Assembly (NCBI GenBank): GCA_964291315.2
Contig: OZ219753.1
Location: 1,568,001-1,632,000 of the forward strand
DNA: 64,000 nt
Direction: 5' to 3'
From: Candidatus Poribacteria bacterium
Lineage (GTDB): Bacteria; Poribacteria; WGA-4E; WGA-3G
Part shown: piece by piece, positions 5,456 to 61,383 of the stretch
How positions within the stretch are numbered: the first letter of the stretch is position 1
How the letters are laid out: every line of letters begins with the position of its first letter
The notes under the pieces: model-generated
Seen by the model: only the letters and a program-made list of their open reading frames with translations
The model's database searches: none
Told to the model about the DNA's origin: nothing
Made by a program: the position numbers and the translations under genes

Positions 5456-5480
5456 ACCCTAAAATCAGTCGGATGTCAAG

Positions 5481-6407: not shown

Positions 6408-7700
6408 ATGGATAATATTACAAAAATTGTAAACGACTTCGGCGAAAATATTGTTCGGGTAGATGGTGACATTCCTGTCGATCTACCAACAAGAGACGGC
6501 GACCGGTTTTTATTTATTAGTCACGACCAAAGGTTTCTTACACACAGTTTGCACAAATATCCTGCCAAATTTTTCCCTGAGTTACCGCGCTGGCTCATTA
6601 AGCGTTATTCTCAAGAAAACGACTATATTCTTGATCCGTTTGCGGGCAGCGGTACTACAAACGTCGAGGCACTTCTTTTAAAGCGAAACTCGGTCGGAAT
6701 TGATGTTGATCCATTTTCACGTTTCATTTCAAAAGTGAAAGTAACACCTTTATCGGAAAAAGACCTCAGAGGCGCGCACAAAATCCTTTTAGATGTTATC
6801 CTTAATTATCGGCCTTCGCTTGTCGCTGAATCTGATTTACCGAAGTTTCCTTACAGGGACAACTGGTTCAATAAAGAAATTTTGCTGGAGCTAACCTATC
6901 TAAAAAAGCAGATTGAGCTCCTTGATACTGAGGAGAGCGTCAAAGATTTCTTCAAAGTTTGTCTTTCATCTATTATCCGCGCTGTCTCCAACGCCGATGA
7001 CAATTGCACTCGTACAGTGATTCGGAAAAAATTAAATAAATCGGTTCGTCCTTCAGACGCACTGAAGCGCTTTGCGAAAGCACTCCATACCAAAGTCCCT
7101 AAAATGATGGATTTTTCTCAAAGATATCCATCAGGTGTAACTGCTGACTTTCCAGAGAACATGGACGCAAGGAACATCAACTACGAATCGGAGCACTTCG
7201 ATTTGGCGGTAACCTCGCCGCCTTATGTCAATGCCGTTGACTATCCGAGAACCCACCAATTGGAAATGTACTGGTTGGGCTTCGCGCAGAACTCACTTGT
7301 CCCCTTGAAAAAGCGAAACGTCGGCACGGAAAGCGTTTCAGCTATTCATTATAAAGTCCGACACGAGATGGGAGTGCCTGAGGCAGATACGGTTATAGCG
7401 GAGATTTTTAAAGATGATCCGAGACGCGCGTTTATTGCGTTCAAGTATTTAGAAGATATGCGAAAAAATCTTACCGAAGTTCATAAGGTGTTGTGCAAAG
7501 GCGGTAGATATATTATCGTCGTTGGTAATAACCGCATTAGGGGACGACTGTTTGAGAATTGGAAATATCTGATGGCAATTGCTGAAGATATTGGCTTCTA
7601 TATTGAAACTTACTTTGGTTCAGAGATTATTAAACATTTTATTAAAGTACCCAGAGGAGAACGCATCAACACTGATTGGGTTTTAGTTTTGAAAAAATAA
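6408..7700 (+). CDS. Amino-DNA methyltransferase, alpha order, probably N4-cytosine
   Basis: HKYPAKF, motif I ILDPFAGSGTT and, later, motif IV VTSPPY. Confidence 0.85.
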   Translation: MDNITKIVNDFGENIVRVDGDIPVDLPTRDGDRFLFISHDQRFLTHSLHKYPAKFFPELPRWLIKRYSQENDYILDPFAGSGTTNVEALLLKRNSVGIDVDPFSRFISKVKVTPLSEKDLRGAHKILLDVILNYRPSLVAESDLPKFPYRDNWFNKEILLELTYLKKQIELLDTEESVKDFFKVCLSSIIRAVSNADDNCTRTVIRKKLNKSVRPSDALKRFAKALHTKVPKMMDFSQRYPSGVTADFPENMDARNINYESEHFDLAVTSPPYVNAVDYPRTHQLEMYWLGFAQNSLVPLKKRNVGTESVSAIHYKVRHEMGVPEADTVIAEIFKDDPRRAFIAFKYLEDMRKNLTEVHKVLCKGGRYIIVVGNNRIRGRLFENWKYLMAIAEDIGFYIETYFGSEIIKHFIKVPRGERINTDWVLVLKK

Positions 7701-29900: not shown

Positions 29901-30083
29901 GGCGTGCATCTGATATTGCGGGATGAGCGTCGCTTTCATCTGCTTCGCGCAAGTATCGAGCAAGAAGGCGAACGGATTGCTGACTGCCCCCTCGTGCGTT
30001 GCCTTGTGCTGGTCGTATGCCTGCAGCGTGGCGTAATAGTCGCGGATCGGTTTGTGGGTGGGTTTGAGTTTGAGTTGTGGCAT
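26985..30083 (-). CDS. Single-chain restriction-modification enzyme (nuclease + N6A MTase + type ISP-like target recognition domain, no helicase)
   Basis: N-terminal IDG...YWEAKD, GIVYTP, DPFVGTG, IGNPPY, C-terminal LYRPF and EWVIDQY. Confidence 0.85.
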   Translation of the reverse strand: MPQLKLKPTHKPIRDYYATLQAYDQHKATHEGAVSNPFAFLLDTCAKQMKATLIPQYQMHAPNGNRIIIDGAILDEYSLPLAYWEAKDIDDDLPKAVEEKRAAGYPLDNILFQNPQRAILYQNGAEVLDVDITAPVSLIAALEALFAYVPPALENWQSAVNDFKEHVPALAGKLKQLIEEQHTGDAGFQAAFASFYETCRTAINPELSHDEVEEMLIQHILTERIFRTVFNNSDFTRRNIIAREIENVVDKLIHRAFSRDVFLEPLDRFYSAIEQAALFCKDFSQKQHFLNTFYEQFFQGFSEDTADTHGIVYTPQPIVDFMVNSVQHLLEAEFDRSLSDSGVHIIDPFVGTGNFIVRLMQDIQGTTLETKYRGELHCNEVMLLPYYIASLNIEQEYFRRTGAYLPFEGIVLADTFELLEQEQGQLFTRENTERVKRQKSADMFVVIGNPPYNTRQVSENDNNKNRKYPLMDALLRDTYSQDSKASNKNALSDPYVKAILWASQRIGEEGIVALVTNNSFLDGIAFDGMRKHLAQDFNAIYVLDLGGDVRQNPKLSGTTHNVFGIQVGVSINFLIKRNSVKTYSNPTEIFYASVNKFWRKEEKHHYLDSKQNYQKVEWRQITPDGHHTWLTERLRPEFETFVPIGTKAAKAKKGAATEVIFKTYSNGVGTARDAWVYNFNRDALTENISRMIENYNAEVARWTQRTNREANVDNFVVYDDTKIKWSSTLKQKLQSGQTTAFTDAKIRSSLYRPFTKSNLYFDRMMNHRVAGFPSIFPTPETESENRVLCVNGIGSKKPFHPLMVAAIPCLGIVDANQSFPFYSYNEDGSNRRENITDWALFTFRSHYKDDAISKWDIFHYTYGLLHHPDYRERYEANLKRDLPHMPFATDFWAFATAGAQLAELHVNYEAAQKFPLKYRETPDTPVDWRVEKMKLSKDKTQLKYNDFLTLEGIPAEAFEYRLGTRSALEWVIDQYRVKTHSRSGLVNDPNRSDAPRYIVDLVARVISVSLKTVEIVKRLPDLSLSDTRNISF

Positions 30084-39529: not shown

Positions 39530-40093
39530 ATGGCAAGGCAAATACAAGGAATAGATGTACTCCTCACCCAAGGGGATATAACGCAAACACGGGTTGATGC
39601 GCTTGTGAACGCAGCGAACAGCAGGCTTATTGGTGGCGGTGGTGTGGACGATGCAATACGCAGAGCTGGCGGCGCTGAAGTCGTTCAAGCTTGTACAGAA
39701 ATCCGTAGACGTGCCGGCGGCTGTCCCACGGGTCAGGCAGTTATCACCCCCGCCGGTAACCTTCAAGCGAAATATGTCATCCATACAGTCGGCCCAGTCT
39801 GGAAAGGGGGCAATTCAGGTGAACCTGCACTGTTGGCGAGCTGTTATCAGGAGAGCCTCCGACTCGCTATAGAAAATGATATTCAGAGCATCGCTTTCCC
39901 CTCTATTAGCACTGGTATCTATGGATATCCGACCGATCGGGCAGCAAGCGTTGCTCTAACAGCGGTAAGAGATTTTGCACAAGCGCGGAACGGCGCACTA
40001 ACGGAAATTCAGTTTGTCTTGTTTGATGCAGCGACATACAAACATTATAAAGACGCTATGTCTACGATTTTTCCGAAATCGGAAACAGCTTAG
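39530..40093 (+). CDS. Macro domain protein (YmdB-like O-acetyl-ADP-ribose deacetylase)
   Basis: GDIT, VNAAN..L.GGGGVD, VIHTVGP and FPSISTGIYGYP. Confidence 0.92.
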   Translation: MARQIQGIDVLLTQGDITQTRVDALVNAANSRLIGGGGVDDAIRRAGGAEVVQACTEIRRRAGGCPTGQAVITPAGNLQAKYVIHTVGPVWKGGNSGEPALLASCYQESLRLAIENDIQSIAFPSISTGIYGYPTDRAASVALTAVRDFAQARNGALTEIQFVLFDAATYKHYKDAMSTIFPKSETA

Positions 40094-44854: not shown

Positions 44855-46234
44855 CTAGCGTAAAACGCCTTGTGCTTTTAGGCGTGAAATCAACTCGGCT
44901 TGTGTGCCCTGTCCTTTTGTAGAGTTGCATGCGGCACAGAGAAGTTGTAAGTTGTCTTCGTGGTCGGTGCCGCCTTGCGATCTTGGCACGATGTGATCAA
45001 TCGTCATGTTCCGAAACGGGAATTGCGTGGAACATCCATTACATAAGCCCTCCTGTTTACCGAACAAGGTATGCTTATGGGTGCGATAATTAGGTACCTT
45101 CTCGCTCCGTGTAGGGATGTCCGTGCGGTGGATAACTCTTCCGAAAAGTCTAACTTCATTCTCTAAACGCGAGCGCACAAGGTCGACTGCTTTGGGTGAT
45201 ATGTCAATCCCTATCCATTGACGTTGGTGTCGTTCTGCTGCGACACAGGTTGTGGCGCACCCACAGAAGGGGTCGAGTACGATATCTCCTTGATTGCTGG
45301 AGGCTTCGATAATGCGTTCTAAAAGGGCGACCGGTTTTTGTGTCGGGTAACCGGTCCGTTCTTCTCCGGCAGGTGGGGAGATGTCATCCCAAATATTACC
45401 GAATGACGTGCCTTTGTAATCCTTCATATATATTCGCCGCTGTAACTTTCCGTCAGGCCGAATAACTATATTTCCTTTCTGGTACTCTTCCTCTAAGCGT
45501 TCCTTGCTTAATCTCCATCCGGATGGGTGGGGATTAACGAATCCGCGCCATTCATAACAGAGGTTGGGTCGCTCCCCCATACCAGGATTCCGCCAAATCG
45601 GCATTGAGTCGTTATAGCGTTCTCCATTTTCGTCAACGTGTTTGAATTTCTTGAGCATTTCGGCTTCTGTGAGTTTTCGCTCTGGCCGCACTGATGTTGA
45701 TGTAGAGGCGGCGTAGTATAAGAGTATATCGGCGTTGTTGCCCCATCGCAAGCTGCGATGCTGGGATCCTTTTTGGGTGGACGTTGTACGTCTCCATGTG
45801 ATTTCGGACCTATAGTTATTTTTTCCGAAAATGCTGTCCATGGTAACTTTCAAATAGTGGCTGGCGGTTGGGTCACAGTGAAGATATATGCTACCGGTCT
45901 TTTTGAGGAGACGCTTCATTTCTAACAAGCGCACTGCCATCATAATGAGGTAAGACTTCATGCCTTTGCCGTGTGTGAGTTCGGCTGTGTGTATTACCTG
46001 ATACAGGGCCGGCTCTCGGTCGGCTATTTCGCCGTGCCATGCGTTGTCTACATCGGAGAGTGTCCAGGTGTCTTTGAAGGCTGTGCCTGCTGCGCTGCTG
46101 CCGATAGGTGCTGCATAGTTGCGATTGGAATTGAATGGCGGGTCAAGATAGATCAGATCGATGGACGCTGTATCTATTCCTCGCAGAACGGGCAAGTTGT
46201 CGTTTGAGAAGAGGGTTCGGTTTTGGGTGTTCAT
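44855..46234 (-). CDS. Beta-order DNA methyltransferase fused to a C-terminal HNH endonuclease
   Basis: YLDPPF, YPTQKP..LLERII, LDPFCGCATT, then CNGC..IDHIVPRSQGG.D...NLQLLC..CN..K. Confidence 0.88.
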   Translation of the reverse strand: MNTQNRTLFSNDNLPVLRGIDTASIDLIYLDPPFNSNRNYAAPIGSSAAGTAFKDTWTLSDVDNAWHGEIADREPALYQVIHTAELTHGKGMKSYLIMMAVRLLEMKRLLKKTGSIYLHCDPTASHYLKVTMDSIFGKNNYRSEITWRRTTSTQKGSQHRSLRWGNNADILLYYAASTSTSVRPERKLTEAEMLKKFKHVDENGERYNDSMPIWRNPGMGERPNLCYEWRGFVNPHPSGWRLSKERLEEEYQKGNIVIRPDGKLQRRIYMKDYKGTSFGNIWDDISPPAGEERTGYPTQKPVALLERIIEASSNQGDIVLDPFCGCATTCVAAERHQRQWIGIDISPKAVDLVRSRLENEVRLFGRVIHRTDIPTRSEKVPNYRTHKHTLFGKQEGLCNGCSTQFPFRNMTIDHIVPRSQGGTDHEDNLQLLCAACNSTKGQGTQAELISRLKAQGVLR

Positions 46235-46408: not shown

Positions 46409-47137
46409 TTAAGGTTTTTCTCCTTCTAATGCTTTCATATCTGGGGGCTTGGTTTCTACGATCCCTTGATCTGGATTGACGGCATTGTGGGCAACCATGG
46501 TTTTGAGGATCTGGTGTGCTAAGTCGATGTATTTCATTGCGGTTTTAGGATTCACTTCATTAAAGATGAGCTGTTTCTGGTAGCCGTAGAGGGTTTCTAA
46601 TTCTCGTGAAAGGTTCATGGAGATATCTAGATTCGGGCTTCGATGATTCGCGTAAAATTCACTTCGAGTTTGGGTAAATAGGGTCCGGTATTTATTCGGG
46701 AATTGAGCGTGATCGATATTAAGGCGGCGGAATCGATTGAACAGATTTTGTCGGAACGTCTTGAGGCGTTCTTGGTGATCGGTGATGGCTTCCTGTTGCA
46801 ATTTGATCTGGAGCTTGGTGAGCTTGGATTCGCGAGTCTCTTGATATTCTTCATGGGCTATTTCATTGAGTTTTTGATCGGCTTTGTCCCCGTATTCTTC
46901 TTCGAACTCTTCTGTGTATTCCTCAATGGCACTGTCGATGTATTCACGTTTTTCTTCTGCTTCTTCTTCGGTTAGCGGTTGGGCCAATAGTTCGTCGAGC
47001 TCGGGCATTTTTTCGAGCTGTGGGATTGGAATTTCATTCTCAAATTTTTCGAGGAATGCCTCGACGATGTCGGTTAATTTCATAAACCGAGCGAAACAGT
47101 TAACGACGAATTCTTTATGTTGTTCTGTGAGTTTCAT
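46409..47137 (-). CDS. Hypothetical protein with DUF2280-like termini and an acidic insert
   Basis: KEFVVNCFARF...IVEAFLEKF and KYRTLFTQTRSEF resemble DUF2280 (recalled, not searched); RBS AAGGAG. Confidence 0.45.
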   Translation of the reverse strand: MKLTEQHKEFVVNCFARFMKLTDIVEAFLEKFENEIPIPQLEKMPELDELLAQPLTEEEAEEKREYIDSAIEEYTEEFEEEYGDKADQKLNEIAHEEYQETRESKLTKLQIKLQQEAITDHQERLKTFRQNLFNRFRRLNIDHAQFPNKYRTLFTQTRSEFYANHRSPNLDISMNLSRELETLYGYQKQLIFNEVNPKTAMKYIDLAHQILKTMVAHNAVNPDQGIVETKPPDMKALEGEKP

Positions 47138-47519
47138 TTTAATACTCCTTAAAAATGTTACACTGGTGTAACGTTTGATATCGTCATGTTATGGGCAAAG
47201 AACCCAGTGAATACAAGGGTTAACAAGCGTTATATTACCTTTGTGAAAAAAAAGCAATTTGGCAGAAAGTGTAACATTTTCTACAAACCTTGCACCTTTC
47301 TGGGAGCGGTAATGGGTTGTAGTTTCGTAAAACATTTTCTGCGTAGATAGCTGGATAACATGCTTTTTCCTCGATTATTCTGCTTCTCTAAACATCACAT
47401 AATATATGATAACACATATCACTTAATAAGTCAAATTTATTTTCTCCCCTATTTAAGTGTAGTTTTTAGGCGATGATTTCTGCTGTGTTTTAGATGCGTT
47501 AAAGACTTCTAGGAAGGTA

Positions 47520-48857: not shown

Positions 48858-48860
48858 TTA

Positions 48861-48970
48861 TTCTCCTTTGAAAATAAGTTTAGGTTTTGGTTTGTAGTAA
48901 AAGTTTCAGGCCGATGGGCCATTTCTTGAGCTGCGTAAGAGGTGTTTCAACCTGTTAATCCCTTTCTATT
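48861..48970. repeat. Diverged direct repeat of 50101-50210 (offset 1240 bp)
   Basis: 46/60 identical over 48861-48920 vs 50101-50160 by hand alignment; similarity continues into the coiled-coil tail. Confidence 0.8.
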
Positions 48971-48973
48971 CAG

Positions 48974-50083
48974 TCAGTCACTCTCCGTTAAACGGCGGAT
49001 TTGCGATTCTAATCGCTCATACCTAGATTCTAATTCTCTGATTCTATCTTGAAGTTGGCGGTGAGTGCCCGGACGTTGAACAACCCTCGTCTCAAATTCA
49101 GAACGCTCAATCTGTTGAAATCGATTGTGGCGAAGATTTTCATAAAAAATCCAGGTGTCTCGATTTGTGCTATTCGCAAATACCCCGAACCTTGTATCCG
49201 TTGCACAGAGATAGGACTTTAATTGGTCAGGACCATACCCTACAACATTTTCTGGCTTACACTCGGCGATTGCAGCAAAACTCCCTTCTGGGTCAATTAG
49301 CACGATGTCAGCCCTGCGGCGGCTAACTCCCATCTGAATTTCGCATTCCCTTGCTGTGGAAAATTCTTGCCTGAGCTCAGAAAAATAAGACTTAACTTCC
49401 CTTACTACTTGAGCTTCACCGTCCTGAAAACCATCGGGCAGAACACGTATATTTCTAGTCCTAATTTGATACCGGGATGTGGGTGGAAAGATGTTAAAGT
49501 GCCCCTCTATACTAACATTAGCCCCTTCCCTTGAAGGAAAGTCACCTGCAATATCGGGAGAAAGTGTGCATTCAATCATTTCTGTGGCACCACTCTCATT
49601 AGCGTCAACATTTATGAGAGCCATACGGATATATCCTTGGTTAGTGCGGGTCCACTCGAAGATTTCCCCTTGAACCGTGATTGAATGGGGTTTTATACTG
49701 TTTTTTAAGGCGGTGGTTAGAGAACTAACGGAAACGGTTTGATCTGGCTGGCCAGCTCCAGGCGTTTCTATACCGGTAACAGCGAACTTATATGCTCCCC
49801 TGTCTCGAAGGAGGATAACCCTACCTGTGATAAACACTTCATTGCCTACTGACGGCACATTTTGAAAAAGGGAAGGATACGCCCTATGAATAAGACATTC
49901 AATCCTGCTTTTGGGGGACTCCATGTCTTGGAGTGTGAAAGCGTAAGGTAGATATTCTGGGTTCGCTGAGATTTTTCCACGTACCCAGACGTTTTGAAGT
50001 GCAGACTGCTCACTTATGACATCCGAGAACATATCCGTTACTTCACGAACGCTGTAGGTATCTATATTAATGTCGTTTGGCAT
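48974..50083 (-). CDS. Two XseA-N-like OB folds + HsdR-N-like PD-(D/E)xK nuclease + coiled coil
   Basis: YSVREVT...VWVRGKIS and VSVSSLT...ITVQGEI (OB folds); RADIV...IAECK...DQLKSY...FGVFANS (HsdR-N-like); ATG at 50083 behind GGAGG. Confidence 0.7.
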   Translation of the reverse strand: MPNDINIDTYSVREVTDMFSDVISEQSALQNVWVRGKISANPEYLPYAFTLQDMESPKSRIECLIHRAYPSLFQNVPSVGNEVFITGRVILLRDRGAYKFAVTGIETPGAGQPDQTVSVSSLTTALKNSIKPHSITVQGEIFEWTRTNQGYIRMALINVDANESGATEMIECTLSPDIAGDFPSREGANVSIEGHFNIFPPTSRYQIRTRNIRVLPDGFQDGEAQVVREVKSYFSELRQEFSTARECEIQMGVSRRRADIVLIDPEGSFAAIAECKPENVVGYGPDQLKSYLCATDTRFGVFANSTNRDTWIFYENLRHNRFQQIERSEFETRVVQRPGTHRQLQDRIRELESRYERLESQIRRLTESD

Positions 50084-50145
50084 GTGCACCTCCTCCTATA
50101 TTCGCCTTTGAAAATAAATTTTGTCTTCGGTTTGTAGTAAGGTTT

Positions 50146-50302
50146 TCAATCCGACGGATCGTTTTTTAGGCTGTTAAGCAGCCTCTCAAACTGTTGAATC
50201 CCTTCGTTCCATGCCGTCTCTTTCCGTTTAAGACGGCAAATTTCAGACTTTAAGTGCTCACATTCGGCCTCTAACGATTTGATTTTATCTTGAAATACAT
50301 GT
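50146..50302 (-). pseudogene. Out-of-frame coiled-coil tail of the giant ORF
   Basis: FQDKIKSLEAECEHLKSEICRL aligns with LQDRIRELESRYERLESQIRRL of the paralog; detached by a frameshifting deletion at about 50302. Confidence 0.7.
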
Positions 50303-53300
50303 GCATTCGGCGATCGCGGCAAAATTCCCTTCGGAATCAATTAGTACGACATCGGCCCTGCGGTGAGCAACTCCCATCTGAATTTGGTATTCCTTTACTG
50401 TGGAAAATCCTTCTTGTTTGAGCTCAGAAAAGTAAGACTCAACGACCTCTACTACTTGAGGTTCGCCTGCAGCACCCACTGCCGTCTCCACACCCGCTAC
50501 CTGCTCAGCGAAACGCGTCGCGATCCTACCTCTTATATCGTCGAACATCACATCCTGTAAAGCAGGCTCTATCGCCCGATAAAAAGCAGGAGCATTTTCA
50601 CGATTCGCTAATTTCTGAAGAATAACCTTCTGGAGAGCATCATATGCGGAAGACGCGAGGACAAAGTTTGTATTGTAATCAATCCCTTGAGGCACTGTAC
50701 CGGGTTCCGCACGGAAGAGGTCTATATTCTCAATCATATCATAATCTGCGGGGTCTAATTCTTCCGTCATCGCCTCTATCTGCTCAGCGGCATCCGTATC
50801 TCGCTGTTCTAATAACGGCATTTCAACCTGCCATTGTCCGTTGCCGACCTGTCGGACAGACACTCGCAGGTCATCCGTAATCTGATATATTGTTTCCCCA
50901 CTACTGAGTTCTTTAACACGGATATGTCCCCGGTGGACAGGGTTCAACCATGCGGAAAGCGTTGCGTAGTTCGCCTGTGCGAAGCTTTCAACGATACGCG
51001 GGAGCCGCTCTATCCGTGTCCCCTCTCCGTCCGTGCTATTTTCTACCTCTAAACTAAAGATAACCCTGTTTTGTCTACTTATACGCATCCGTGGCTCTAC
51101 GACCAACAAAATCTCTTCCCGAGGCCCCACAGCCTCCTGCGTCTCTGTCGCGGGAGAGCCCTCTATCGCCTGAGAGACCGCATTAATACGAATAAAGGGA
51201 TTGTTTGTAACCCGATAGGACGCACGGACTGCCCGGTGTTCTGTACCATCTACATCTACTGTGACCCCTTCTGCTTGGGTCTGTTCAGCAATAGGAGACG
51301 CGCCAGCAATCTCTTCCCTACGCGCACGAAGTTCCTGAGCGAGAGCTGTATCTGAAATTGTAACAGAATGTGTAAGCGAAGCGGTATCAAATGTCTCAGG
51401 ATCGAGCGTAAGACTATCTGCTACATGCTCCCTGCCCCCTTCACGCGTCTTGAGCACTGTGTTCAAAACATTCTGCGATTTTCGTCTCTGTCCACGAATT
51501 ACAGCAGGACGATAAGGAGCGTCCTTGAAATACTCCCCTTGCAACCGCCAGATAGCGTCCTTGACATCCCGTATCGCGATAGGATAGCTGCGCGTAATCC
51601 GTCGCATCTGTGATTCTAGAGAATCCACGACCTCTCGCAACGACTTTCGTAACACATCATTAGAGACATGCGTATCAATCGCATTTAAGAGAGCCTCCCG
51701 ACCTACAGGGCTCCCCTCCCCTACTTTAGGGAAGACCAAACGACGGATGCCCCAGCGATTGTAGACCTTCTGTACTTCCTCCGAACCCGATCTTGCGATT
51801 TCTACCTCTAAAGATTTTAGTAACCGTCTATAATTAGAAACCGAAGTTTCTAGCCCATTCTGCAGTGCCCGTTGCTGATCCACAAGTTCTTGAAGATTCT
51901 CAAGCACAGTCGCCCGTGTCTCTGCATCCAACTCATCTTTCAATTCATTGCGGTACCCCTCCATCCTGCGATCCGAGAGCGGAGGCTCTACATCAAACGC
52001 ATTTTCTACAAAATATTCAACCGTTACATTCTTTTCGAAGAAGCGGTCTTTATTAGAGTGATCAGCGAAGCGGTGGAATGTCTCTATAGCAGAAAGTGCA
52101 GCTGAATCAAAAGCGTTCGCAAGTATCTCTGCCTCGCCACTCTCACCCATATATCCTTCATCTTCATAAAAGGCTAATACGAGAGGGTCCATGTAAGAGC
52201 GAGCCGTACTCCGCTTCTTAAATCCTGAAGCGTTAATATCTCGGATCGTTAAACTCGCACCTGAGGCAGCGTGTGTCACCGAAGCGATAAAGGTATCAGG
52301 AGCAGATTGAGCAATCGCAATACGGAGCCCCGTCCCTGATTCATAAACACGCACACCATTAACAAAGCCTGTGGATTGCATAGCATCATTGCGATTCGGG
52401 ACACGCAATGCGACACCATCGGGCGTAAGCCCTGTAGATGACTGAGCGAGGGTGGATTGCCCCGATTGCACCATCTGCTCGTTGAAAGCCTTCACACCTT
52501 GAAGGAAACGCGTGTGACGCGCCTCTAGTTCCTGTGCGATAGCACTCTCAGACTCAGCGGTCTCTATGAAATTCGAACGAGAGATCTCTATATCGACACG
52601 GAAATGATGCTGGATACCCTCGGGGACAGGGGAGTAGTAAGCCCCCGCGAGGAACCTTATTGGTTCCATATCCCGATAAAGTTGTTCTAGCGTAGAGAGG
52701 ATATAAGACTCAGAAACCCCGTCAACTAAAATCCAAGGCGTTGTTCTACGGAGATATGCCCGTTGTGCTTGTATCGCAGCCTTGCGTTCATTATCTATCT
52801 CTGTCGCTTCCCGCGAAGATTCCCCTGGTGTCTCTGACTGTATGTCTACAGGGAGTTCACTTGTCTGCCGTCTGTGCTCAAAGCCACGTAGTGGTTCCGC
52901 TTCAAAAGTTGTCGGGTCCGGTACCCAAGCATCCGCCTCTCTTCTGACATAAATTCCGCGTTCGGTATCGAAAAAGGCGACACGCCTAAACTTCTCAGCG
53001 TTCACTGGGCTCCGTGCGGGAGATGGGAAATTCGCCTGAGACGGGTCATCCGCACGGTCTGTTAGCAACAGATGCATCTCTATGGGTTCGCCTTCTATCG
53101 CATATCTCTGAATATGGTCTACAGGAGGCGTATCCTTACCCGCATAATACTGCGTATCTTCAATATCTCTAGGTAGCCGGCGGACGGGGCCTGTATAGCG
53201 AGCATATGTTCGTGTCGGTCTCCGATCCAAAGCAGCGCGGACTTCTAGAGGTTCTAAATCATCATCAGTATCCGTCTCCGCGGCATCACGCTCCTCAAAT

Positions 53301-56300
53301 TCCTTCACAAAGGCAAGTTGTCGCTCTAACGCAATATCCGTTATCACCACCCGCGTCTCTCTGCGTCGCTCCGGCTCCCAGTTGCCATTTCTATAAACTT
53401 CTAAAACCGCAGCACGTTCTATTGCGGGGAAGCGAACACGCCTTTCATCACTAATTTCCCATACAACATCATCATTGACTTCCCTGCGTATATTGTAATT
53501 CCCAAAACTACCCGCTTCAATCATACGTCGCATGTGCCCGCGTACCGTATTTACGAACTTCCTGCCCACATATTCCCATAAAGACCGAGCATCTGCGTAA
53601 TCTATCTCTTCAAGCACGACACCATTATAGAAAACCTTTGCGACACCACTCCCCTCAAGGAACTCAACCACATACCCCTGGTATTCCTGATGCACATACC
53701 TACGGACAACAGGATTGTCATAATGCTGTTCCACCCAGTTTTTATCTGTTGGTGTCCATGTATTTTGAGCCTCTAATCGTCTCCTGAGTAGGCTCGGGAC
53801 TGCCCATCTGAGTTGAGCTACCGTGCGTTGAGCATCAAGAGAGTCCATCACTTCCCTATTGACCACATCAACTAAAGCCTCATATACATCGAGCCGAGTG
53901 TAGAGCGGAGTTTCTGAAGCGAACACAGCCGTCTCTATCGCTTGCGTCAACTCTGCACCAAACACGAACGCAATATCCCTTGACCAATCCTTCCAATCTT
54001 CTATAAGAATGTTATTAGGGTCAGTATCTGCTTCCCGCCAGCCAGTAATAGTAGGCGGTTTCCCTTCTTGAACCTCAACACGTTGTCCGAAGGGACGTAC
54101 TTTCGGGAGATTCCATCCCTTTTCAGCCGCAACTTCACGTTGAGACCAAAGGATGTATGAGATCGCTTCATGCGGAGAACGTGGTTGTCCGTCTGGTGTC
54201 TCTATAGCGACAGCCACTGCGGGGACAGGTGTCCCATTTGCGTCGCGGAAGACAGGAACCGATTCATCCCCACGGAAGGCATCTATCCTATATCTGAAGC
54301 CCGATTCTGTGGGTACCACCTGAACAGTAAAAGTATAGTCAGGCGACTCAACAACACCATCTGCCCCTAAATCAAAAGCGACAGTATCCCCTAGTTCAAA
54401 TCGCCAGGCACCCTGACCCCCCATATCTATCGCGGCAAGCTGGAGCGGGATATTCCCTGATAAAGAGAAACCATCTCGCATCACCATTGCGATAGGAGCA
54501 ATCGCCCTTCGCAACGCATCTGTTGTATTCAGCGGGCCTGTTTGCCAGTTCGTGACAAACACTTTATCACTTATCGTCCCATCTTTCCGGTTCTCAATTG
54601 TCACCTCACCCTTCTCACCCTTCTTGAATCGGATAGTTAAGTCAGAGCCGAGCATCGCGACCTGTACTTCTGTATCAGAGTCCTGGATCACCTCAAACTG
54701 TGTCCCCTTTGTCCTATCTATGTAAAAACGTGTAGACTCCCGTTTTGTGCCATCCGCATCCGTCTCCTCCATAGAAGCAACCGCCATCCGCAACTGCGTT
54801 GAGGGACGACGAAATACCTGCTTTTTATCAGGAATAACGACATATTCGTGCATCGCAGACGCAGGTACCAGTTTCCCCGTATTCGTCAACACTATATCTG
54901 AACGGGGACGCTCACCCGCTAACGTCTCTAGATTCTTTTGAAACGCAGAGAGCGGTAAATTGGTAAGAACGACACCTTTCAACTTAAATGCGTCTAGACC
55001 TCGGAGTTCTACAAAAGCCGATTGTAATGTATTGAGGAGCTGCTTTAAGGCGACACCCTCAGGCTCCCAAAGCGACATCATAGAGAAATTTTCATTTTTA
55101 GACGTAAACGTTTCAAGGTCTGCTGCGAGCTGCATCAACCGGTTCTGCTTAACCGTGTCTTCCGTATTCCCCGCGAGACGCTTGAGCATATGAGCCGTAT
55201 CCCCCGCCATATCTGAAAGCCCCGCACCCCGTCGCTCACCCGTTGCTCGCCATTTCCCATCAGGCCCCTTCTTCTTCACCTCTGCTGTAGCGGGTATAGA
55301 CCCATCATTCCAGAGGGCATCAAACCCATTTTCAGGAGCATTTATGACCATTTCATATGTATCAAACCATTGCGGAGCATAAATCTCATCTATCTGCGAC
55401 TCCCGTGGCACACCTGTTGCAGCGACCCGTCCTGCGAGAGACCGTATCTGAGCCTTAGGCGAACGCGGGTCTTCTACTACACCCTCACCGTCATCCTCCG
55501 TATCCTCATCTGCGTCAGGCGGGCGTTCCCCCGCTTCTATGATCTCTTCATCCGTCGCTGTATCCGGTTCCTCTGCTTCCGCTTGATCTTGTGCGAAGTC
55601 AGGATTATCTAAATCTATATCATCCATAGAGCCGACACCCTGGTTCGTAATCTCAGACAACAGCACAGTCTGTATCGTTTCTGGCGAATACTCCACCGTC
55701 TGCGGTACCGGGACAGATGTAATATGAGGCGTGAGACGCTGCATCTCTCTACGGATTGACTTGAGATAATTTTCCACCTGCGTCAAGATGTTTGGAGGGT
55801 CAGGGAGCCGCAACACGAACTGACGCACCGCTGCGATCTCCGCTTCTGTCGGACGAGCATCCGTACGGGACGTTTGATACCGAGTAATAAAAGACTTAAC
55901 TAAATCCCATTGCTGTTGCTTTTCTTTTATAGTGTAGCCTTTAAAGACAAGATCCGCGACAGAGAGGTCTTCAAGCTCTACAGGCGTTCCGAACGAGACA
56001 CGTTCTGTATCTCCTCTAACATCTGTTCTCCACAGATGCGGAGTTACCCACAGATATTCATAAAGTGCTTCATTCTCAGAGTCCCAGCCTTGCGAGAAAT
56101 CTGACCATGGCATTTGGAGCCGAATATTCAACGGGAAAGACAACGGCAAACGCAGGCCTTTATTCTGTGGCGTGACGACAGAGAGATATTTACCACTTAC
56201 AGAGAGACGTACCTCTATATCCCTGAAATTCCCTAAATAATAATGATATACCTGCTTTTCTGTCAGAACAGGGATTGAGGCGTAAGGAACATTCTCTTCC

Positions 56301-59300
56301 TGCCAGCTGAACGTCTGGTCTTCATCACGCGTATGGTGTTGCTCCCCTACCTTCGCGTACTCACCCCGTGTTACAATATCCTGTGGCGGTGCGAGACCAC
56401 CTTGTTCTGTATCTCGGGATGCGAGATTTACGACACGATACTTTAGATTACCACGACGCTTCACCGGTATCAGAGGATCGTTCGGGTGTGATTCTACGGA
56501 ATCAACAGAGCTATCCCCATAGATACCTGGATTTACAACACCGGGAGCGAGCGAACGGAAGAGATGCTCTACAGCGACAGGGAAGTCCTCACTACCAAAA
56601 ACGAGCCCCGCATATGCTTCCCGAGTTCCTAATTCGGAAGGGAACGCTGTCCGCATCCCAAGTTCTGCGGCACCTTCTGTCATTTCTGTCTCTAGTTGCA
56701 ACAGGTCTGCTTCTTGCGTCCGAGGCGTAGTGAGTTTCCACTCCACACTATCCTCAGGCCCCCTTCGCAAAATAAGTTCAAAGCCGGGATAATGCGCGTG
56801 TCTATAGATAACCTGTTGTACCGTCCCTTCCGTATCTGCTTTTAAATCTACAAGTGCGAGAGCACCCGCTGCCTTAGGAGCATACATAGACATCGCTTTT
56901 GTCACACGAACCTCACTCCGTCCGGCAATAGGGTCAGGCGGTGGAGCGGGAACTTCTCTCGCAATCCCTACAGGGTCAAACACCTCTGTGAGACCACCGG
57001 GCTGGATGTCTACCACACGCATCCCTAGCACATCGTGCATAATCTCGCCAAGAATAGAGCGGTGCGAGGCACGAGATTCACGTTCTAACGCCCCGAACGC
57101 AATCGCACTCTCTCCCAAAGCCTCCCCGGCGATATGAAGACGGATCGTGTCTTTAAGAAACATCCCGAGGTCTTTCTGTGTTTTCCGTAGATAGTTATGA
57201 TACGCAGCAGTAAAAGCAGGGTCAAGCCCACCCCTTCGGAGACGGTCATTTGTGCGCGTAATCCCTGAAAGTCTATCTATAATCAACTGATAGGCGTGGT
57301 CATTTTGAGAAGGCGTGAATTCGTGAGCTGCGACATACTTTATATCTGTATCCCTAAAAGATTCCCGCAGACGTTCTGCGTGAGACCAAGAATCTTCAAG
57401 AGCGTTTGTCTGTGGATTGCGTTGCCTGTCCCACATCGTCATCCGCACATCCACGAACACTTTAACACCAGAGGCTTTCAAATCCCTGTAGAATGTTTCA
57501 AAGTTTTCATAGTTACGGAGACCTATCAATCCCCCTGTAACAGTCCGTTCCGCTTCATCTAACGGAGTGACATATTCAAACTCAGAAGATGTTGTAGGTG
57601 CGGGGTGTCGTGCTGCGAGCAGGCGGTTGAGTATACGAAGTTCCGCAGAAGCACGGAGGGCCGCACTTTGTGTCGGTATCGCTCCCTCTTTTGTCAACTG
57701 GCTCTGAATCTCTCCGATACGATCCTGTAGTTGTCCTTCTGTCCAGTCCGCTGTTTTTGTTTCAAATTCCTGGTACGCTTTTTCTGCGAAAGCAGAAGTG
57801 GGATGTGTAAGTGTCGCGACCTCTTTGAGTGCTTTTAGGAGATTCTTTCCATCCCAAAGATATGTTGTTTCAATCTTCCCCGTCCGTTTATTTTGATACT
57901 CCCCTTTTTTGACCAGCGGGCTAGACTTTGTATTCTTGAGAACAATCACGCCAGGGAGTGTCGCGAGGTACTCGCTCCCTTCAAGTGGAGAACCGAAAAG
58001 AGCAGGGTCAAGGATAACAACAGGGCGGCCCGCTTGCAAGGATTTTAGAGCCGTATCTACTGCCTGGTCATTCTCTTTATGGCTCGCGTGTGTAATGAAA
58101 GTCACGTGGCTAAGAGACGCGATAAGAGCATTCTTCTGAAAGTTGTTCCTCTGATATGGCGATCTCCCTGTTGCCGTTGTCACCTCGTTGGCATCATAGC
58201 CTGTCGGATGCATAGAGATAGCACCCGCATTTACTCCATCAATTTCAGGCACATTCGGCTGATACTGAGCCGTTCGGCTAAAAGGCGTAGCACGCCTCTC
58301 TATCCCGCCGGGCATTGCGACCAGCACATTCGCCCGCTTCTGTTTTGTAACAGCTTTCACCACTTCACGCCCTGTGCCAAAGGTGCCATCTGTGACAGCA
58401 ATCTCCTCATTCAGTGCGGTAGCAAGTGCAGCCGCTGCATTAGCACCTTCTCCCTGTGCTTTATTATAGGCATCTATTCGCTCTTCAACCGCTTGATCCC
58501 ATTCTGAAGCATCCGTGATCCATCCGAGGCGAGTCGCAACATCTATCTTCTTCTGCCGCGTCTGCTCTTCTGTCTCTCCCATAGAAGAAAACGAGCTGTT
58601 ATTACGCTGAGAGCCTGCTATTCCGAAGGTCAGATTACCTTGAGCCGCTTTATTAAGAATCATCTCCGCAGTATTGTGGAGATAGAGCGACCTTATATCT
58701 ATCCCGAGAGCGTCAGCCGCGGACTGCATCCGTGGCGGTAAATCCGCAAAAGGCATTTGTCCCGCAGGTTCAGCGTCTGCGGGTGTCGGCACAGGTATTT
58801 TTCCATCTTTGAGCTGCTGCCGTATTTGCATCAAATGTCGGCCAAGTAGGTTCTCTCCCTTGACACCTTGCGGAGTTATATTCACACCCCAAACGGGTTT
58901 CGCGTTACTGATCGTCTCCCGGTCGGTGCTAATCGGTTCTACAAAAAGCAAACGACGGTCACCTGTTGCGAGGAGCCAGTCTGCGAGTGTCCTCGCCTCA
59001 CGAGCATCAAACTTGTAAAGCTGGGGAGACGCATATTTCGCAAGCAACGCTTCACGCATCAACGAACTCCTGCGTTGCACCCAGGCTGCGGTCTGTTCAG
59101 GCGTAAGTTCAGACTCATATTTATTCGCAATCTTCCACGCCTCTTCTGCGGTGTTTGCTCTACGGATACCTTCTGAGACAGGTATCTGTTGCCGTTTACC
59201 ATCACGAGCCCGTACCCACCACATCTTTAAGCCGCTGTTCGCAAACTTCATAGAGAGCATATAATGCTCAACAGAGGTATAACGTTGTCCGCCTATCTTT

Positions 59301-60367
59301 GGATAATCCGCAAAAAAAGTAGATAACGCGCGGAACGGGCCACGGAGCGATTCATAATTAAAATAGAGCGTATTGTTAACACTCCCCGCAGCTTCTTCCT
59401 CCGCGTCCACATCTAATCCCGCTTCATATTCCTGAAACTGCTCTAACCCCTCTTGGAACAGAGCCACTGTTTGCTGTAATTCTCGGAGCGTTTCTGCCTC
59501 TGTCTCTGTCCGCACATCCTTCGCTTCAAGTTCCGCAATATCCTCTTTTAAGTCTGCGATAGCTTTTTCAACATTCGAAACACTTAACTCCCCATCCTGC
59601 AATGCTTCAAACACTTCATTCTCTTGTCCGAAGGGAGAACCGAGGGTTTCCCAGCCATCGTCATCCGTATCCGCTTGTGCCTGTGCTTCACGTCGTTGCC
59701 GTATCCTGTCAAGGATTTTATTCGCTGCAGCATCACTTGTCCTTATCTTCGCAGTCTCTGGTATCTCTCGTTCTTCTTCTTCTGCTTCAGGCTCTCCGGG
59801 TTCTTTTATCGGCAGTTCTTCTTCCTGTTGCTGGGTTTCCTGCTCCTGTTCTTCTTCCTGCTCAGGCTCAGGCTCCGGTTCTGGTTCAGTTCTACGAGCA
59901 TATCGGGTCTGTCCCCCCTCTCTGCTACTATCTATTTCGTCAAAGAGGTTATCAACCGCCGTGATCAACGCTCGGAGTTCCAGCCATTGCGACAATCCCT
60001 CTGAGAAATAAGCCAGCTTTTCATGAGCCTTTCGAAGGTCTTTCACCTCTGCTTCGGTTAGCCCCGATTTCGCTTCGAGTTCCACAATCGTAGCTTCAAT
60101 CTGCGCTTTTCCTTCTTCAACCACAGCAACCGGCAGACCATCGCGGAGCGCACCAAACACTATATTTCCATCAGCAGCCTCTTCTCCAAACGATGACGTG
60201 AGTACGGTTGCTTCCTCTTCCACCTGATAGAGCGGGTGCGGTGGGCTTTCTTCTATTGCTGTATCGCCAACGAGTTCTGTTGTCTCATTGGTTTCTGATA
60301 CTCTTGAATAGCAGACATCTCGTCCGTCTCTCTCGCTGCTAATAAATCCTTTTTTCCGAGTTGACAC
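50285..60367 (-). CDS. Giant 3360-aa polyvalent-type protein (NADAR + DprA/SMF + DUF488 + unknown regions + truncated HsdR-N-like nuclease)
   Basis: 10-kb uninterrupted ORF with RBS GAGGAGG; NADAR at about 58805-59370, DprA-like at about 57940-58635, DUF488-like at about 57005-57545, nuclease half at 50303-50464. Confidence 0.8.
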   Translation of the reverse strand: MSTRKKGFISSERDGRDVCYSRVSETNETTELVGDTAIEESPPHPLYQVEEEATVLTSSFGEEAADGNIVFGALRDGLPVAVVEEGKAQIEATIVELEAKSGLTEAEVKDLRKAHEKLAYFSEGLSQWLELRALITAVDNLFDEIDSSREGGQTRYARRTEPEPEPEPEQEEEQEQETQQQEEELPIKEPGEPEAEEEEREIPETAKIRTSDAAANKILDRIRQRREAQAQADTDDDGWETLGSPFGQENEVFEALQDGELSVSNVEKAIADLKEDIAELEAKDVRTETEAETLRELQQTVALFQEGLEQFQEYEAGLDVDAEEEAAGSVNNTLYFNYESLRGPFRALSTFFADYPKIGGQRYTSVEHYMLSMKFANSGLKMWWVRARDGKRQQIPVSEGIRRANTAEEAWKIANKYESELTPEQTAAWVQRRSSLMREALLAKYASPQLYKFDAREARTLADWLLATGDRRLLFVEPISTDRETISNAKPVWGVNITPQGVKGENLLGRHLMQIRQQLKDGKIPVPTPADAEPAGQMPFADLPPRMQSAADALGIDIRSLYLHNTAEMILNKAAQGNLTFGIAGSQRNNSSFSSMGETEEQTRQKKIDVATRLGWITDASEWDQAVEERIDAYNKAQGEGANAAAALATALNEEIAVTDGTFGTGREVVKAVTKQKRANVLVAMPGGIERRATPFSRTAQYQPNVPEIDGVNAGAISMHPTGYDANEVTTATGRSPYQRNNFQKNALIASLSHVTFITHASHKENDQAVDTALKSLQAGRPVVILDPALFGSPLEGSEYLATLPGVIVLKNTKSSPLVKKGEYQNKRTGKIETTYLWDGKNLLKALKEVATLTHPTSAFAEKAYQEFETKTADWTEGQLQDRIGEIQSQLTKEGAIPTQSAALRASAELRILNRLLAARHPAPTTSSEFEYVTPLDEAERTVTGGLIGLRNYENFETFYRDLKASGVKVFVDVRMTMWDRQRNPQTNALEDSWSHAERLRESFRDTDIKYVAAHEFTPSQNDHAYQLIIDRLSGITRTNDRLRRGGLDPAFTAAYHNYLRKTQKDLGMFLKDTIRLHIAGEALGESAIAFGALERESRASHRSILGEIMHDVLGMRVVDIQPGGLTEVFDPVGIAREVPAPPPDPIAGRSEVRVTKAMSMYAPKAAGALALVDLKADTEGTVQQVIYRHAHYPGFELILRRGPEDSVEWKLTTPRTQEADLLQLETEMTEGAAELGMRTAFPSELGTREAYAGLVFGSEDFPVAVEHLFRSLAPGVVNPGIYGDSSVDSVESHPNDPLIPVKRRGNLKYRVVNLASRDTEQGGLAPPQDIVTRGEYAKVGEQHHTRDEDQTFSWQEENVPYASIPVLTEKQVYHYYLGNFRDIEVRLSVSGKYLSVVTPQNKGLRLPLSFPLNIRLQMPWSDFSQGWDSENEALYEYLWVTPHLWRTDVRGDTERVSFGTPVELEDLSVADLVFKGYTIKEKQQQWDLVKSFITRYQTSRTDARPTEAEIAAVRQFVLRLPDPPNILTQVENYLKSIRREMQRLTPHITSVPVPQTVEYSPETIQTVLLSEITNQGVGSMDDIDLDNPDFAQDQAEAEEPDTATDEEIIEAGERPPDADEDTEDDGEGVVEDPRSPKAQIRSLAGRVAATGVPRESQIDEIYAPQWFDTYEMVINAPENGFDALWNDGSIPATAEVKKKGPDGKWRATGERRGAGLSDMAGDTAHMLKRLAGNTEDTVKQNRLMQLAADLETFTSKNENFSMMSLWEPEGVALKQLLNTLQSAFVELRGLDAFKLKGVVLTNLPLSAFQKNLETLAGERPRSDIVLTNTGKLVPASAMHEYVVIPDKKQVFRRPSTQLRMAVASMEETDADGTKRESTRFYIDRTKGTQFEVIQDSDTEVQVAMLGSDLTIRFKKGEKGEVTIENRKDGTISDKVFVTNWQTGPLNTTDALRRAIAPIAMVMRDGFSLSGNIPLQLAAIDMGGQGAWRFELGDTVAFDLGADGVVESPDYTFTVQVVPTESGFRYRIDAFRGDESVPVFRDANGTPVPAVAVAIETPDGQPRSPHEAISYILWSQREVAAEKGWNLPKVRPFGQRVEVQEGKPPTITGWREADTDPNNILIEDWKDWSRDIAFVFGAELTQAIETAVFASETPLYTRLDVYEALVDVVNREVMDSLDAQRTVAQLRWAVPSLLRRRLEAQNTWTPTDKNWVEQHYDNPVVRRYVHQEYQGYVVEFLEGSGVAKVFYNGVVLEEIDYADARSLWEYVGRKFVNTVRGHMRRMIEAGSFGNYNIRREVNDDVVWEISDERRVRFPAIERAAVLEVYRNGNWEPERRRETRVVITDIALERQLAFVKEFEERDAAETDTDDDLEPLEVRAALDRRPTRTYARYTGPVRRLPRDIEDTQYYAGKDTPPVDHIQRYAIEGEPIEMHLLLTDRADDPSQANFPSPARSPVNAEKFRRVAFFDTERGIYVRREADAWVPDPTTFEAEPLRGFEHRRQTSELPVDIQSETPGESSREATEIDNERKAAIQAQRAYLRRTTPWILVDGVSESYILSTLEQLYRDMEPIRFLAGAYYSPVPEGIQHHFRVDIEISRSNFIETAESESAIAQELEARHTRFLQGVKAFNEQMVQSGQSTLAQSSTGLTPDGVALRVPNRNDAMQSTGFVNGVRVYESGTGLRIAIAQSAPDTFIASVTHAASGASLTIRDINASGFKKRSTARSYMDPLVLAFYEDEGYMGESGEAEILANAFDSAALSAIETFHRFADHSNKDRFFEKNVTVEYFVENAFDVEPPLSDRRMEGYRNELKDELDAETRATVLENLQELVDQQRALQNGLETSVSNYRRLLKSLEVEIARSGSEEVQKVYNRWGIRRLVFPKVGEGSPVGREALLNAIDTHVSNDVLRKSLREVVDSLESQMRRITRSYPIAIRDVKDAIWRLQGEYFKDAPYRPAVIRGQRRKSQNVLNTVLKTREGGREHVADSLTLDPETFDTASLTHSVTISDTALAQELRARREEIAGASPIAEQTQAEGVTVDVDGTEHRAVRASYRVTNNPFIRINAVSQAIEGSPATETQEAVGPREEILLVVEPRMRISRQNRVIFSLEVENSTDGEGTRIERLPRIVESFAQANYATLSAWLNPVHRGHIRVKELSSGETIYQITDDLRVSVRQVGNGQWQVEMPLLEQRDTDAAEQIEAMTEELDPADYDMIENIDLFRAEPGTVPQGIDYNTNFVLASSAYDALQKVILQKLANRENAPAFYRAIEPALQDVMFDDIRGRIATRFAEQVAGVETAVGAAGEPQVVEVVESYFSELKQEGFSTVKEYQIQMGVAHRRADVVLIDSEGNFAAIAECTCISR

Positions 60368-60516
60368 GTGTACCTCCTCACTCTATATTATTTTATACAA
60401 AAAACGTTCAAAAGAGAGAAAATAACCTCAGAAGAGATATTACTCCTCTTGGTGAAAATAGGAGCCCATTGAAGACATTTTCAGTGGCGACTTTCAAGTA
60501 GCTACGGTTCTCCGAA

Positions 60517-61383
60517 TCACAACGTTTTTTCGAATTCCTTCAGCAGGTTTCGCTGCTTGCGAGACAGCGATTTCGGTATTTCTACGACCAGCCTGACCTT
60601 TAAATCTCCTTTTCGTCCGGAGGCATCCACGGCGCCGCGCCCGCGTAAGCGGAGCTGCTGTCCGGGTTGCGCACCCGCGGGGATCTTTAGCTCGACATTG
60701 TCGGTGAGCGTTTTGATCCGAACAGAACCCCCTAACGCTGCGTCTGTCATAGAGATTTTGGCATCTGTTAGCAGGTCCAAACCGTCGCGTGTCAGGGTGG
60801 GATGAGGCTGCACAGAGACTGTTACCAATAGGTCCCCTGAGGTGCCTATTCCGCGAGATTCGCCTTGTCCTCGGATGCGGAGGGTTTTTCCATCTTCGAT
60901 AGTGGGCGGAATTGTAAGCGTGATCCGTTTTCCTCGGACGTTTACGTCTTTCTTACTGCCTAATACTGCGTCTGAGAAAGGGATAGTGATATTCATACGA
61001 ATATCTCGTCCACGGGCTGGCGTAGTAGTTCGGCGCTGTCCGAATGCGTCGCCGAATGCGTCGCTAAATCCGCCGAGCCCGCCGAACCCGCGTCCAAAAA
61101 TGTCATCTAAATTGAGGTGGGCGAAAATATCATCCGTGGTCCTATAGCCTTCGAAACCCATGTTGTTGACTCCGGCGTGCCCCTGTGTATCATAGACGCG
61201 TCGCTTTTCTGGATCAGAGAGCACAGAATAGGCATTAGAGGCCTCTTTGAACTTCTCTTCTGCTGCTTTATCGCCAGGGTTTTTGTCTGGATGATACCGG
61301 ACTGCAAGTTTGCGATACGCTTTCTTGATTTCGTCTGGCGTGGCTCCTCGGGCTATACCGAGGATTTCATAGTAATCTCTCAT
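60517..61383 (-). CDS. DnaJ-family chaperone without zinc finger (CbpA-like)
   Basis: DYYEILG, YHPDKN J-domain, G/F region and DnaJ C-terminal domains; no CxxCxGxG. Confidence 0.92.

Follow-up and report, generated by a model that had tools for sequence, protein, structure and literature searches.

The 64,000-nucleotide window analysed here (contig OZ219753.1 of a Candidatus Poribacteria bacterium) contains a giant gene at 50285..60367 on the minus strand. An earlier note, made from the letters alone, had picked out this open reading frame (ORF), and it proves to be real, a single open frame of 3360 codons with a GTG start and a TAA stop. The encoded protein contains a NADAR domain, a DprA-like SLOG domain, and a DUF488 domain (the triad), followed by a conserved core of ~2200 residues. 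Judged by its alignments, the protein is truncated at both ends and corresponds to the middle portion of much larger proteins, which form a very rare family of giants. We consider it moderately probable that the gene is a captured, truncated, and probably decaying fragment of a giant polyvalent-type family, whose triad would act on ADP-ribose (ADPr)-derived molecules. The earlier note foresaw neither the larger family, nor the resident origin of both ends of the ORF, nor the erosion of the domain signatures. All features of the giant ORF described below lie on the minus strand.

The family comes from an exhaustive phmmer search of residues 330–1110 against 1.84 billion cluster representatives. 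The search finds 14 other representatives with the triad block, most of which align over the whole 781-residue block in one stretch. They share 26–45% identity over the block, reach lengths of up to 7912 aa, and all derive from ENA metagenome assemblies; none carries a name. The contigs encoding P0004, P0018/P0008, P0011, P0014/P0022, P0026, and P0027 fall into two length groups, ~55–67 kb and ~113–128 kb. The collinear giants (5448–7912 aa, metagenome-only) match the window protein over approximately residues 217–3293. In BLASTP, residues 330–3286 of the window protein align to residues 990–4033 of P0004 with 34% identity, and the series of matches is alike for P0008, P0011, P0014, and P0015; two more full-length relatives are 7475 and 7307 aa long. 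The family giants exceed the window protein by ~880 residues N-terminally and ~3400 residues C-terminally, and the multiple alignment breaks down past approximately residue 3293. When the whole genome is searched with P0004 by tblastn, residues 880–4040 match the giant gene only, and residues 1–880 and 4040–7439 match nothing anywhere. Word-based searches of the whole protein against proteins of 1848–5880 aa return only the protein itself, and those of residues 1100–3360 against shorter proteins return nothing; these blanks reflect limited sensitivity, as the exhaustive phmmer search shows.

The C-terminal ~3400 aa of the relatives P0004, P0008/P0018, P0011, P0014, P0026, and P0027 contain, as read by eye, two NAGDG/GGR[LV]V-type stretches and two further stretches with the motifs NRPSGD and HNHP. 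The latter two look JAB/RadC-like, and methyltransferase-like motifs are also seen in the extension; these labels are tentative and have no tool support. The last ~1200 aa of the relatives are very conserved and end in a hydrophobic segment. The Pfam families on record for the family giants are NADAR, DprA, and RRM_1 only, and the RRM (PF00076) is the sole database-backed label in the extension.

The NADAR domain (residues 357–520; 58808..59299) is the clearest of the three. It matches PF08719 with 47 bits against a cut-off of 35.1, and a profile of the family matches the NADAR structures 2b3w (3e-16) and 8bau (3e-10), in agreement with the earlier note. The DprA-like SLOG domain, a Rossmannoid domain (approximately residues 560–860; 57788..58690), and the DUF488 domain (approximately residues 930–1125; 56993..57580) lie where that note had placed them, but both are sub-threshold in the window protein alone (DprA PF02481, 11.9 bits against 29.6, residues 735–799; DUF488 PF04343, 15.9 bits against 22.2, residues 956–1023). 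It is the homologues that uphold them. In a Pfam scan of eight relatives, listing matches at E up to 0.01, NADAR is listed in six and reaches the cut-off in five, and DprA is listed in seven and reaches the cut-off in four (P0003, P0007, P0012, and P0010; 32.3–59.5 bits). DUF488 is listed in three of the eight, two of them at or above the cut-off (P0005, 26.0 bits; P0003, 22.3 bits). With the family profile, DprA structures are recovered at ~2.5e-3 and ShosA, a DprA-like antitoxin, at 0.05; its DUF488 part has no match among PDB sequences. Because the relatives align over the whole block, several of them pass the cut-offs, and the profile matches known structures, the three domains are real by homology. 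DUF488 is said to belong to the same superfamily as DUF4326, that of the rhodanese-phosphatases.

Other searches add little to this picture. An NCBIfam scan agrees with Pfam, PHROGs returns phrog_1017 (a family of unknown function) over the NADAR region and one weak row, and PADLOC returns no match for the giant ORF. A search of PDB sequences with the whole protein gives no match at E ≤ 1. No MuF, portal, SNF2, ADP-ribosyltransferase (ART), ArdC, or peptidase domain is detected in the protein by Pfam, NCBIfam, PADLOC, or PHROGs.

The region preceding NADAR (59420..60190) consists of two copies of a helical motif of ~75 aa with an acidic linker rich in E, P, and Q between them. The copies (approximately residues 60–134 and 246–316) share 45% identity over 75 aa (E 6e-15) in a direct pairwise comparison; a self-BLAST of the protein listed no internal repeat. 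The relatives apparently have one copy, directly before NADAR, as read by eye from their consensus, and residues 1–240 of the giant protein find only weak matches in the relatives (E 0.004 and 0.05).

The core (approximately residues 1126–3293; 50489..56992) is conserved and collinear within the family and contains no Cys. As the earlier note had it, this stretch of ~2200 aa is without assignment; it matches no family in Pfam, NCBIfam, PHROGs, PADLOC, or PDB sequences, and fold searches assign none either. AlphaFold2 models built on the shallow family alignment predict repeated modules of a β-meander plus a helix, with disordered acidic linkers at approximately residues 1590–1640 and 2360–2400. 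The mean predicted local distance difference test (pLDDT) score and the predicted template modelling (pTM) score are 69.9 and 0.40 for residues 1150–2349, and 59.1 and 0.34 for residues 2395–3360. Foldseek comparisons with these models give no fold, either against PDB (best E 6.6e-3 and 1.1e-2; template modelling (TM) score ≤ 0.2 in the top rows) or against BFVD (best E 5.5e-4; TM score 0.07–0.09). VIA-align comparison with 48,161 chains stays at background level, and an ESM Atlas search with residues 1640–2360 has a best score of 0.77 and gives no lead. Since these searches used multi-domain models, they are a weak test of single domains, and we do not claim a new fold.

Both ends of the ORF are resident sequence. 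A Shine–Dalgarno sequence, GGAGG, lies five bases upstream of the GTG start (60368..60385), and the string GGAGG, five bases, GTG TCA A is identical to the start of the OB-fold/HSDR_N_2 gene in the allele lacking the insert. The Shine–Dalgarno site, the GTG start, and the first two codons of the giant ORF therefore derive from the resident OB-fold/HSDR_N_2 gene. A promoter and terminator scan finds no convincing minus-strand promoter directly upstream, with counts near the expectation from shuffled sequence. At the other end, approximately residues 3301–3355 (50285..50467) are 73% identical to residues 224–277 of the neighbouring protein P0017, within its HSDR_N_2 module. The similarity ends directly past AAIAEC and is followed by TCISR and the stop, such that the K of the E-x-K motif and the remainder of the domain are absent. 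A complete PD-(D/E)xK-type HSDR_N_2 module with the E-x-K lysine is thus not present in the giant ORF, and Pfam finds no HSDR_N_2 match in the giant protein at E up to 1. On this alignment, the last ~55 residues represent the initial half of an HSDR_N_2 paralogue that has decayed, and they originate from the resident locus, not from the giant family.

P0017 itself (48974..50089, minus strand), the slot's resident cargo, combines a pair of OB folds (tRNA_anti_2) with an HSDR_N_2 domain and has a coiled-coil tail. Between P0017 and the giant ORF is a spacer (50090..50284, minus strand). It contains an open frame of 50 codons that is out of phase with the giant ORF and whose product looks coiled-coil-like by eye. 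This frame may be the tail of the decayed paralogue; tblastn with P0017 and its homologue in genome G018 recovers matches to the module only and not the spacer frame. A second, diverged copy of the Shine–Dalgarno and start region follows the spacer and precedes P0017. Most simply, P0017 would once have had a tandem paralogue whose N-terminal part was replaced by the family fragment and whose nuclease-type module later lost its second half.

The insert is polymorphic. We compared the window with contigs of three runs from one study (X1, X2, and X3; Logan contigs). In X1, the depth of the giant gene body is ~424–448 and that of the flanks ~760–900; in X2 and X3 the depth of the gene body is 0. 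The empty allele, in which position 50059 is joined to 60361 with 14 nt in between, has a depth of 456 in X1 and 3152 in X2. X3 covers 49975–50464, including the 3′ piece with the HSDR_N_2 half module, and not the gene body. Because the empty joint is found in X1 and X2 alongside insert-bearing contigs in X1, the 10,301-bp segment at 50060..60360 (no strand assigned) is polymorphic for presence or absence. Roughly one in two members of the X1 population has it, whereas it is missing from X2 and X3. No RNA run is listed among those containing the gene.

These data also bear on whether foreign DNA was joined chimerically to the chromosome during assembly. The genome is from an uncultured population, the tetranucleotide signature of the gene is outlying, and the giant gene occurs in one of the listed runs only, all of which would fit such an artefact. 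However, X1 contigs cross both insert junctions (record 3, 49936–54035; record 4, 54063–60428), although X1 may be the source sample and is then not fully independent. In addition, the depths sum up, with ~424–448 for the insert and 456 for the empty joint against ~760–900 for the flanks. As the junctions are spanned, a chimeric assembly is disfavoured, and we regard it as barely credible.

The inserted segment is of foreign origin. Of the phylum's other genomes, 175 were searched and none has a counterpart of the triad block; the sole hit is a weak match confined to DUF488 (E 3.5e-4), and the N-terminal 1100 aa of the giant protein match none of the genomes of 40 relatives. The tetranucleotide distance of the gene to the genome, a check that the earlier note had proposed, is 0.241 and exceeds that of all 150 background 10-kb windows. 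The genes flanking the region code for a DnaJ/CbpA-like protein and an aminotransferase; five complete genomes from the genus have these two genes either side by side or with 1–3.3 kb of other cargo in between. Given the absence from the phylum genomes, the 10.3-kb polymorphism, and the adjacency of the flanking genes in relatives, the data support the giant gene as a foreign, accessory sequence. Consistent with the earlier note, there is no mobile element around it; no integrase, phage, or conjugation gene is found in the 64,000-nt window. The neighbours in the window are the DnaJ-like gene, APH, Asd, the aminotransferase gene, and the OB-fold/HSDR_N_2 gene, with no packaging or transfer genes among them, and the only tRNA of the window is 9 kb from the giant gene.

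Across the genus, the stretch separating the DnaJ/CbpA-like and aminotransferase genes (48858–60520 of the window) is a slot with varying cargo. It is empty in G006 and G024, where the two genes are 73–75 bp apart. The slot of G018 contains an OB-fold/HSDR_N_2 gene, a Macro-domain gene, and a gene for 307 aa without assignment; those of G014 and G007 contain small genes, in G014 including a homologue of the 307-aa gene and what looks by eye like a Macro remnant.

The window copy deviates from its family at positions that are otherwise kept. We counted columns invariant in at least eight other family members (n = 92), and the window copy deviates at nine of them. The corresponding rates are 1.2–4.5% for the closest relatives P0003, P0006, P0007, and P0004, 5.9% for P0010, and 12–20% for more distant members. 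Six of the nine changes are in or just before NADAR (P327A, S341L, N350T, F370M, Q371L, and H475F). Compared with the signature LSNF, EHYFQA.KF, H.EH, YWG, and G.N.LG, which all relatives keep, the window copy otherwise keeps KF, WG, and GENLLG, and has a Y-to-V change; which of the NADAR residues are catalytic is presumed here. In the SLOG domain, the loop SGGAxGxD reads TDGTFGTG; the change G660D, another of the nine, affects the invariant second glycine, and the final Asp of most relatives is a Gly. In DUF488, the cysteine pair of the relatives' F-x-C-[VI]-E...C-H-R-S is replaced by A and S (A-L-E...S-H-R-S), which bears out the missing cysteines pointed out in the earlier note; both are kept in 12 of the 14 aligned sequences covering the motif, and lost in the window copy and P0011. 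These changes hint at relaxed constraint on the window copy and do not prove it. With erosion in all three catalytic signatures and with neither terminus of the family left, the window copy is most likely a recent relic that would retain hardly any of the ancestral activity, or none; it may still bind ligands or serve as a decoy. Of the earlier proposal of a DNA-protection or counter-defence protein of mobile origin, the foreign, accessory origin thus stands, and a working function in this copy is doubtful.

Several points weigh against the gene being a decaying fragment of a mobile, injected family. The erosion count is small, and P0008, a member of the closer group, deviates at 9.0%; the E-H of VEHY in NADAR and the HRS of DUF488 are retained. 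The tetranucleotide outlier may be partly due to the odd amino-acid make-up of one long gene. The mobile-element nature of the relatives is presumptive, and the searches proposed in the earlier note yielded the 14 metagenomic relatives but none from phages or plasmids. Scans of IMG/VR, GTDB species genomes, and JGI metagenomes with patterns from the triad alignment give no confirmed relative; two patterns made by back-translating columns that are invariant in the relatives' C-terminal part have no match in IMG/VR; and the triad has no tblastn match among INPHARED phages or PLSDB plasmids. (One of the C-terminal patterns has three JGI matches and one GTDB match, which are due to chance, as no tblastn similarity is seen in any.) Other large ORFs of the host are also poor in Cys (0 in 2056 aa, 1 in 2068 aa, and 2 in 2991 aa). 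Finally, about half of the X1 population keeps the gene, and a 10-kb frame that is free of stops, has a good Shine–Dalgarno sequence and start, and is joined in frame on either side could equally belong to a working fusion under selection.

Such a fusion would be a domesticated protein in which the family core has become a new N-terminal module of an HSDR_N_2-type scaffold, serving as a decoy, sensor, or immunity factor against the full-length carrier element, or as a non-catalytic nucleotide binder. The intact 3360-codon frame with its Shine–Dalgarno site and start, in frame at both joins, speaks for it. HSDR_N_2 modules, present in 18 of 40 other genomes searched, have varied partners in the genus (two OB folds, TPR, VWA, or none), and the Macro gene beside the OB-fold/HSDR_N_2 gene in the slot of G018 suggests a recurring ADPr theme at the locus. 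C-to-S changes in phosphatase-type sites often yield binding-only proteins. On the other hand, the HSDR_N_2 part breaks off ahead of the catalytic K, without the remainder of its fold, and the gene is absent from half of X1, from X2 and X3, from the 40 relatives in the genus and order, and from the 175 phylum genomes. We regard a functional fusion as rather unlikely, and return to the captured and probably decaying fragment as the preferred reading.

Only three of the 3360 residues of the giant protein are Cys: residue 19 and two within the resident C-terminal piece. Thirteen relatives contain 30 Cys in 67,322 aa, typically two per protein, and their positions in the alignment are those of the DUF488 motif C-[VI]-E...C-H-R-S; P0011, at 7912 aa, lacks Cys altogether. 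The Cys content of host ORFs averages 0.98%, and at that frequency the absence of Cys from the 3046-aa family-derived core has P ~9e-14. This exclusion fits delivery through a narrow channel and does not prove it. The host's other large, Cys-poor ORFs may likewise encode giant proteins that are exported, and their Cys poverty points to export or translocation generally, not specifically to injection with DNA.

Extreme Cys depletion would likewise fit a secreted bacterial effector that acts on an animal host, with the triad dismantling host NAD+-derived immune signals. The genome groups with sponge-associated Candidatus Poribacteria, and NADAR and SLOG are described in PMC9503650 as acting on ADPr derivatives. 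Yet the N-terminus, as read from its sequence, has no evident signal peptide or membrane segment, and no secretion-system gene is adjacent. Moreover, the window copy is truncated with eroded motifs, and the protein is not conserved in any other phylum genome searched. A role as secreted effector is therefore very unlikely.

The copy keeps the central ~3080 residues of the family, i.e., the triad and the ~2200-aa core, and sits in a paralogue of the resident OB-fold/HSDR_N_2 gene, using its ribosome-binding site, start, and first two codons and running in frame into its half nuclease-type module. For the family, we propose the following course. The ancestral family protein would leave the producing cell unfolded, probably delivered with phage or conjugative-element DNA in the manner of polyvalent proteins. 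NADAR would cut a ribosyl N-glycosidic bond, SLOG would bind or cleave a nucleotide, and DUF488 would contribute a cysteine-dependent phosphatase-like step, such that the triad as a whole may take apart NAD+- or ADPr-derived molecules. The DprA-like domain may bind single-stranded DNA and NADAR may reverse DarT1 modification, as the earlier note had suggested.

Precedents are found in two bodies of work. Very large proteins that string enzymatic domains together were described as polyvalent proteins by Iyer, Burroughs, Anand, de Souza, and Aravind in 2017 (PMC5512222), the main text of which mentions NADAR, SLOG, and DUF488 zero times. Polyvalent proteins resemble the giant protein in very large size, linker-strung domains, conflict-type enzymatic domains, and foreign origin. 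Of their defining properties, several effector or enzymatic domains in one very large polypeptide are found here as three enzyme-type domains plus the core in 3360 aa. By contrast, polyvalent proteins are encoded by phages, prophages, or conjugative elements near packaging or transfer genes, whereas the window copy has no phage or conjugation gene nearby and is a middle fragment only.

The second body of work is the account of DNA viruses by Iyer et al. in 2022 (PMC9503650). It describes SLOG, Macro, NADAR, and DUF4326, a clade of the rhodanese-phosphatases, as fused or co-occurring, and predicts that this set degrades ADPr-derived immune signals, be they cyclic ADPr (cADPR)-type signals or ADPr adducts. 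According to the same source, polyvalent effectors are packaged into virions, from which they are injected. The giant protein has the same combination of SLOG, an N-glycosidase (NADAR), and a phosphatase-like domain as the viral fusions reported there; however, the viral proteins are typically standalone and small and have DUF4326 as partner, whereas here the partner is DUF488 and the triad lies inside a protein of 3360–7900 aa. Among the papers searched, none contains both DUF488 and NADAR. By that search, the NADAR–SLOG–DUF488 combination is undescribed, as the earlier note had supposed.

Comparison with characterized single domains gives a similar mixture. NADAR resembles the DarT1-type NADAR antitoxins and YbiA-type N-glycosidases (8bau and 2b3w) in sequence and in the E-H motif, but several family-invariant positions are changed in the window copy, and there is no DarT-like ART gene nearby in the window. 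The family profile relates the second domain to the Rossmannoid DprA/SLOG domain of DprA and ShosA (5mll, 4ljr, 3uqz, and 9vzo); unlike in these proteins, there are no SAM or winged-helix matches, the GGAxGxD loop is degenerate, and there is no competence or ShosT-type partner. The last ~55 aa resemble the small PD-(D/E)xK-type HSDR_N_2 proteins (PF13588), but represent a half module without the E-x-K Lys.

The family, rather than the window copy, is the object of interest. With 14 other representatives among 1.84 billion clusters, it is very rare, and the window gives a first handle on it. It couples three domains for processing ADPr or nucleotides to several thousand conserved residues, and its exclusion of Cys is among the strongest to be expected. 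If delivery by mobile elements holds true, the triad would be a candidate counter-measure to NAD+-based immunity, e.g., Thoeris-type signals or DarT-type DNA marking. We can go further and suppose that the relatives are an undescribed class of 7000–8000-aa proteins with Cys only in the DUF488 site, threaded unfolded during injection or export, with the triad directed against NAD+-derived immune signals or ADP-ribosyl-DNA marks, and that the window copy would be a host-captured, catalytically dead decoy or sensor on an HSDR_N_2 scaffold. This combined proposal is speculative and, in our judgement, unlikely. The window copy itself illustrates how a giant gene may become shortened and fused to a host gene within a hotspot of variation, and its presence in part of the population offers a natural comparison of cells with and without the giant gene.

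Some other features of the window are worth recording. A 1032-aa protein (26985–30083, minus strand) has Type ISP coupler, N6 methylase, and specificity domains, but Pfam detects neither a nuclease nor a helicase in it, which may mean that a Type ISP restriction–modification enzyme has been truncated or split here. A standalone Macro-domain protein (39530–40093, plus strand; 162 bits) is a further ADPr-processing gene, ~10 kb from the giant gene. Past the aminotransferase gene lie a gene for an N6/N4 DNA methyltransferase fused to an HNH endonuclease (44855–46234, minus strand) and a gene for a DUF7607 protein (46409–47137, minus strand; 25.8 bits, just under the Pfam cut-off). Parts of these two genes match scattered sites in relatives, and they may represent another mobile or defence-type insert. 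The gap between the DUF7607 gene and the aminotransferase gene contains an intergenic element of ~140 bp (47141–47280) with dozens of matches in relatives of the genus, chiefly G007. All three runs also show a form of this element that skips 75 bases (47172 joined to 47248), and it looks like a small dispersed repeat similar to a miniature inverted-repeat transposable element or a repetitive extragenic palindromic element.

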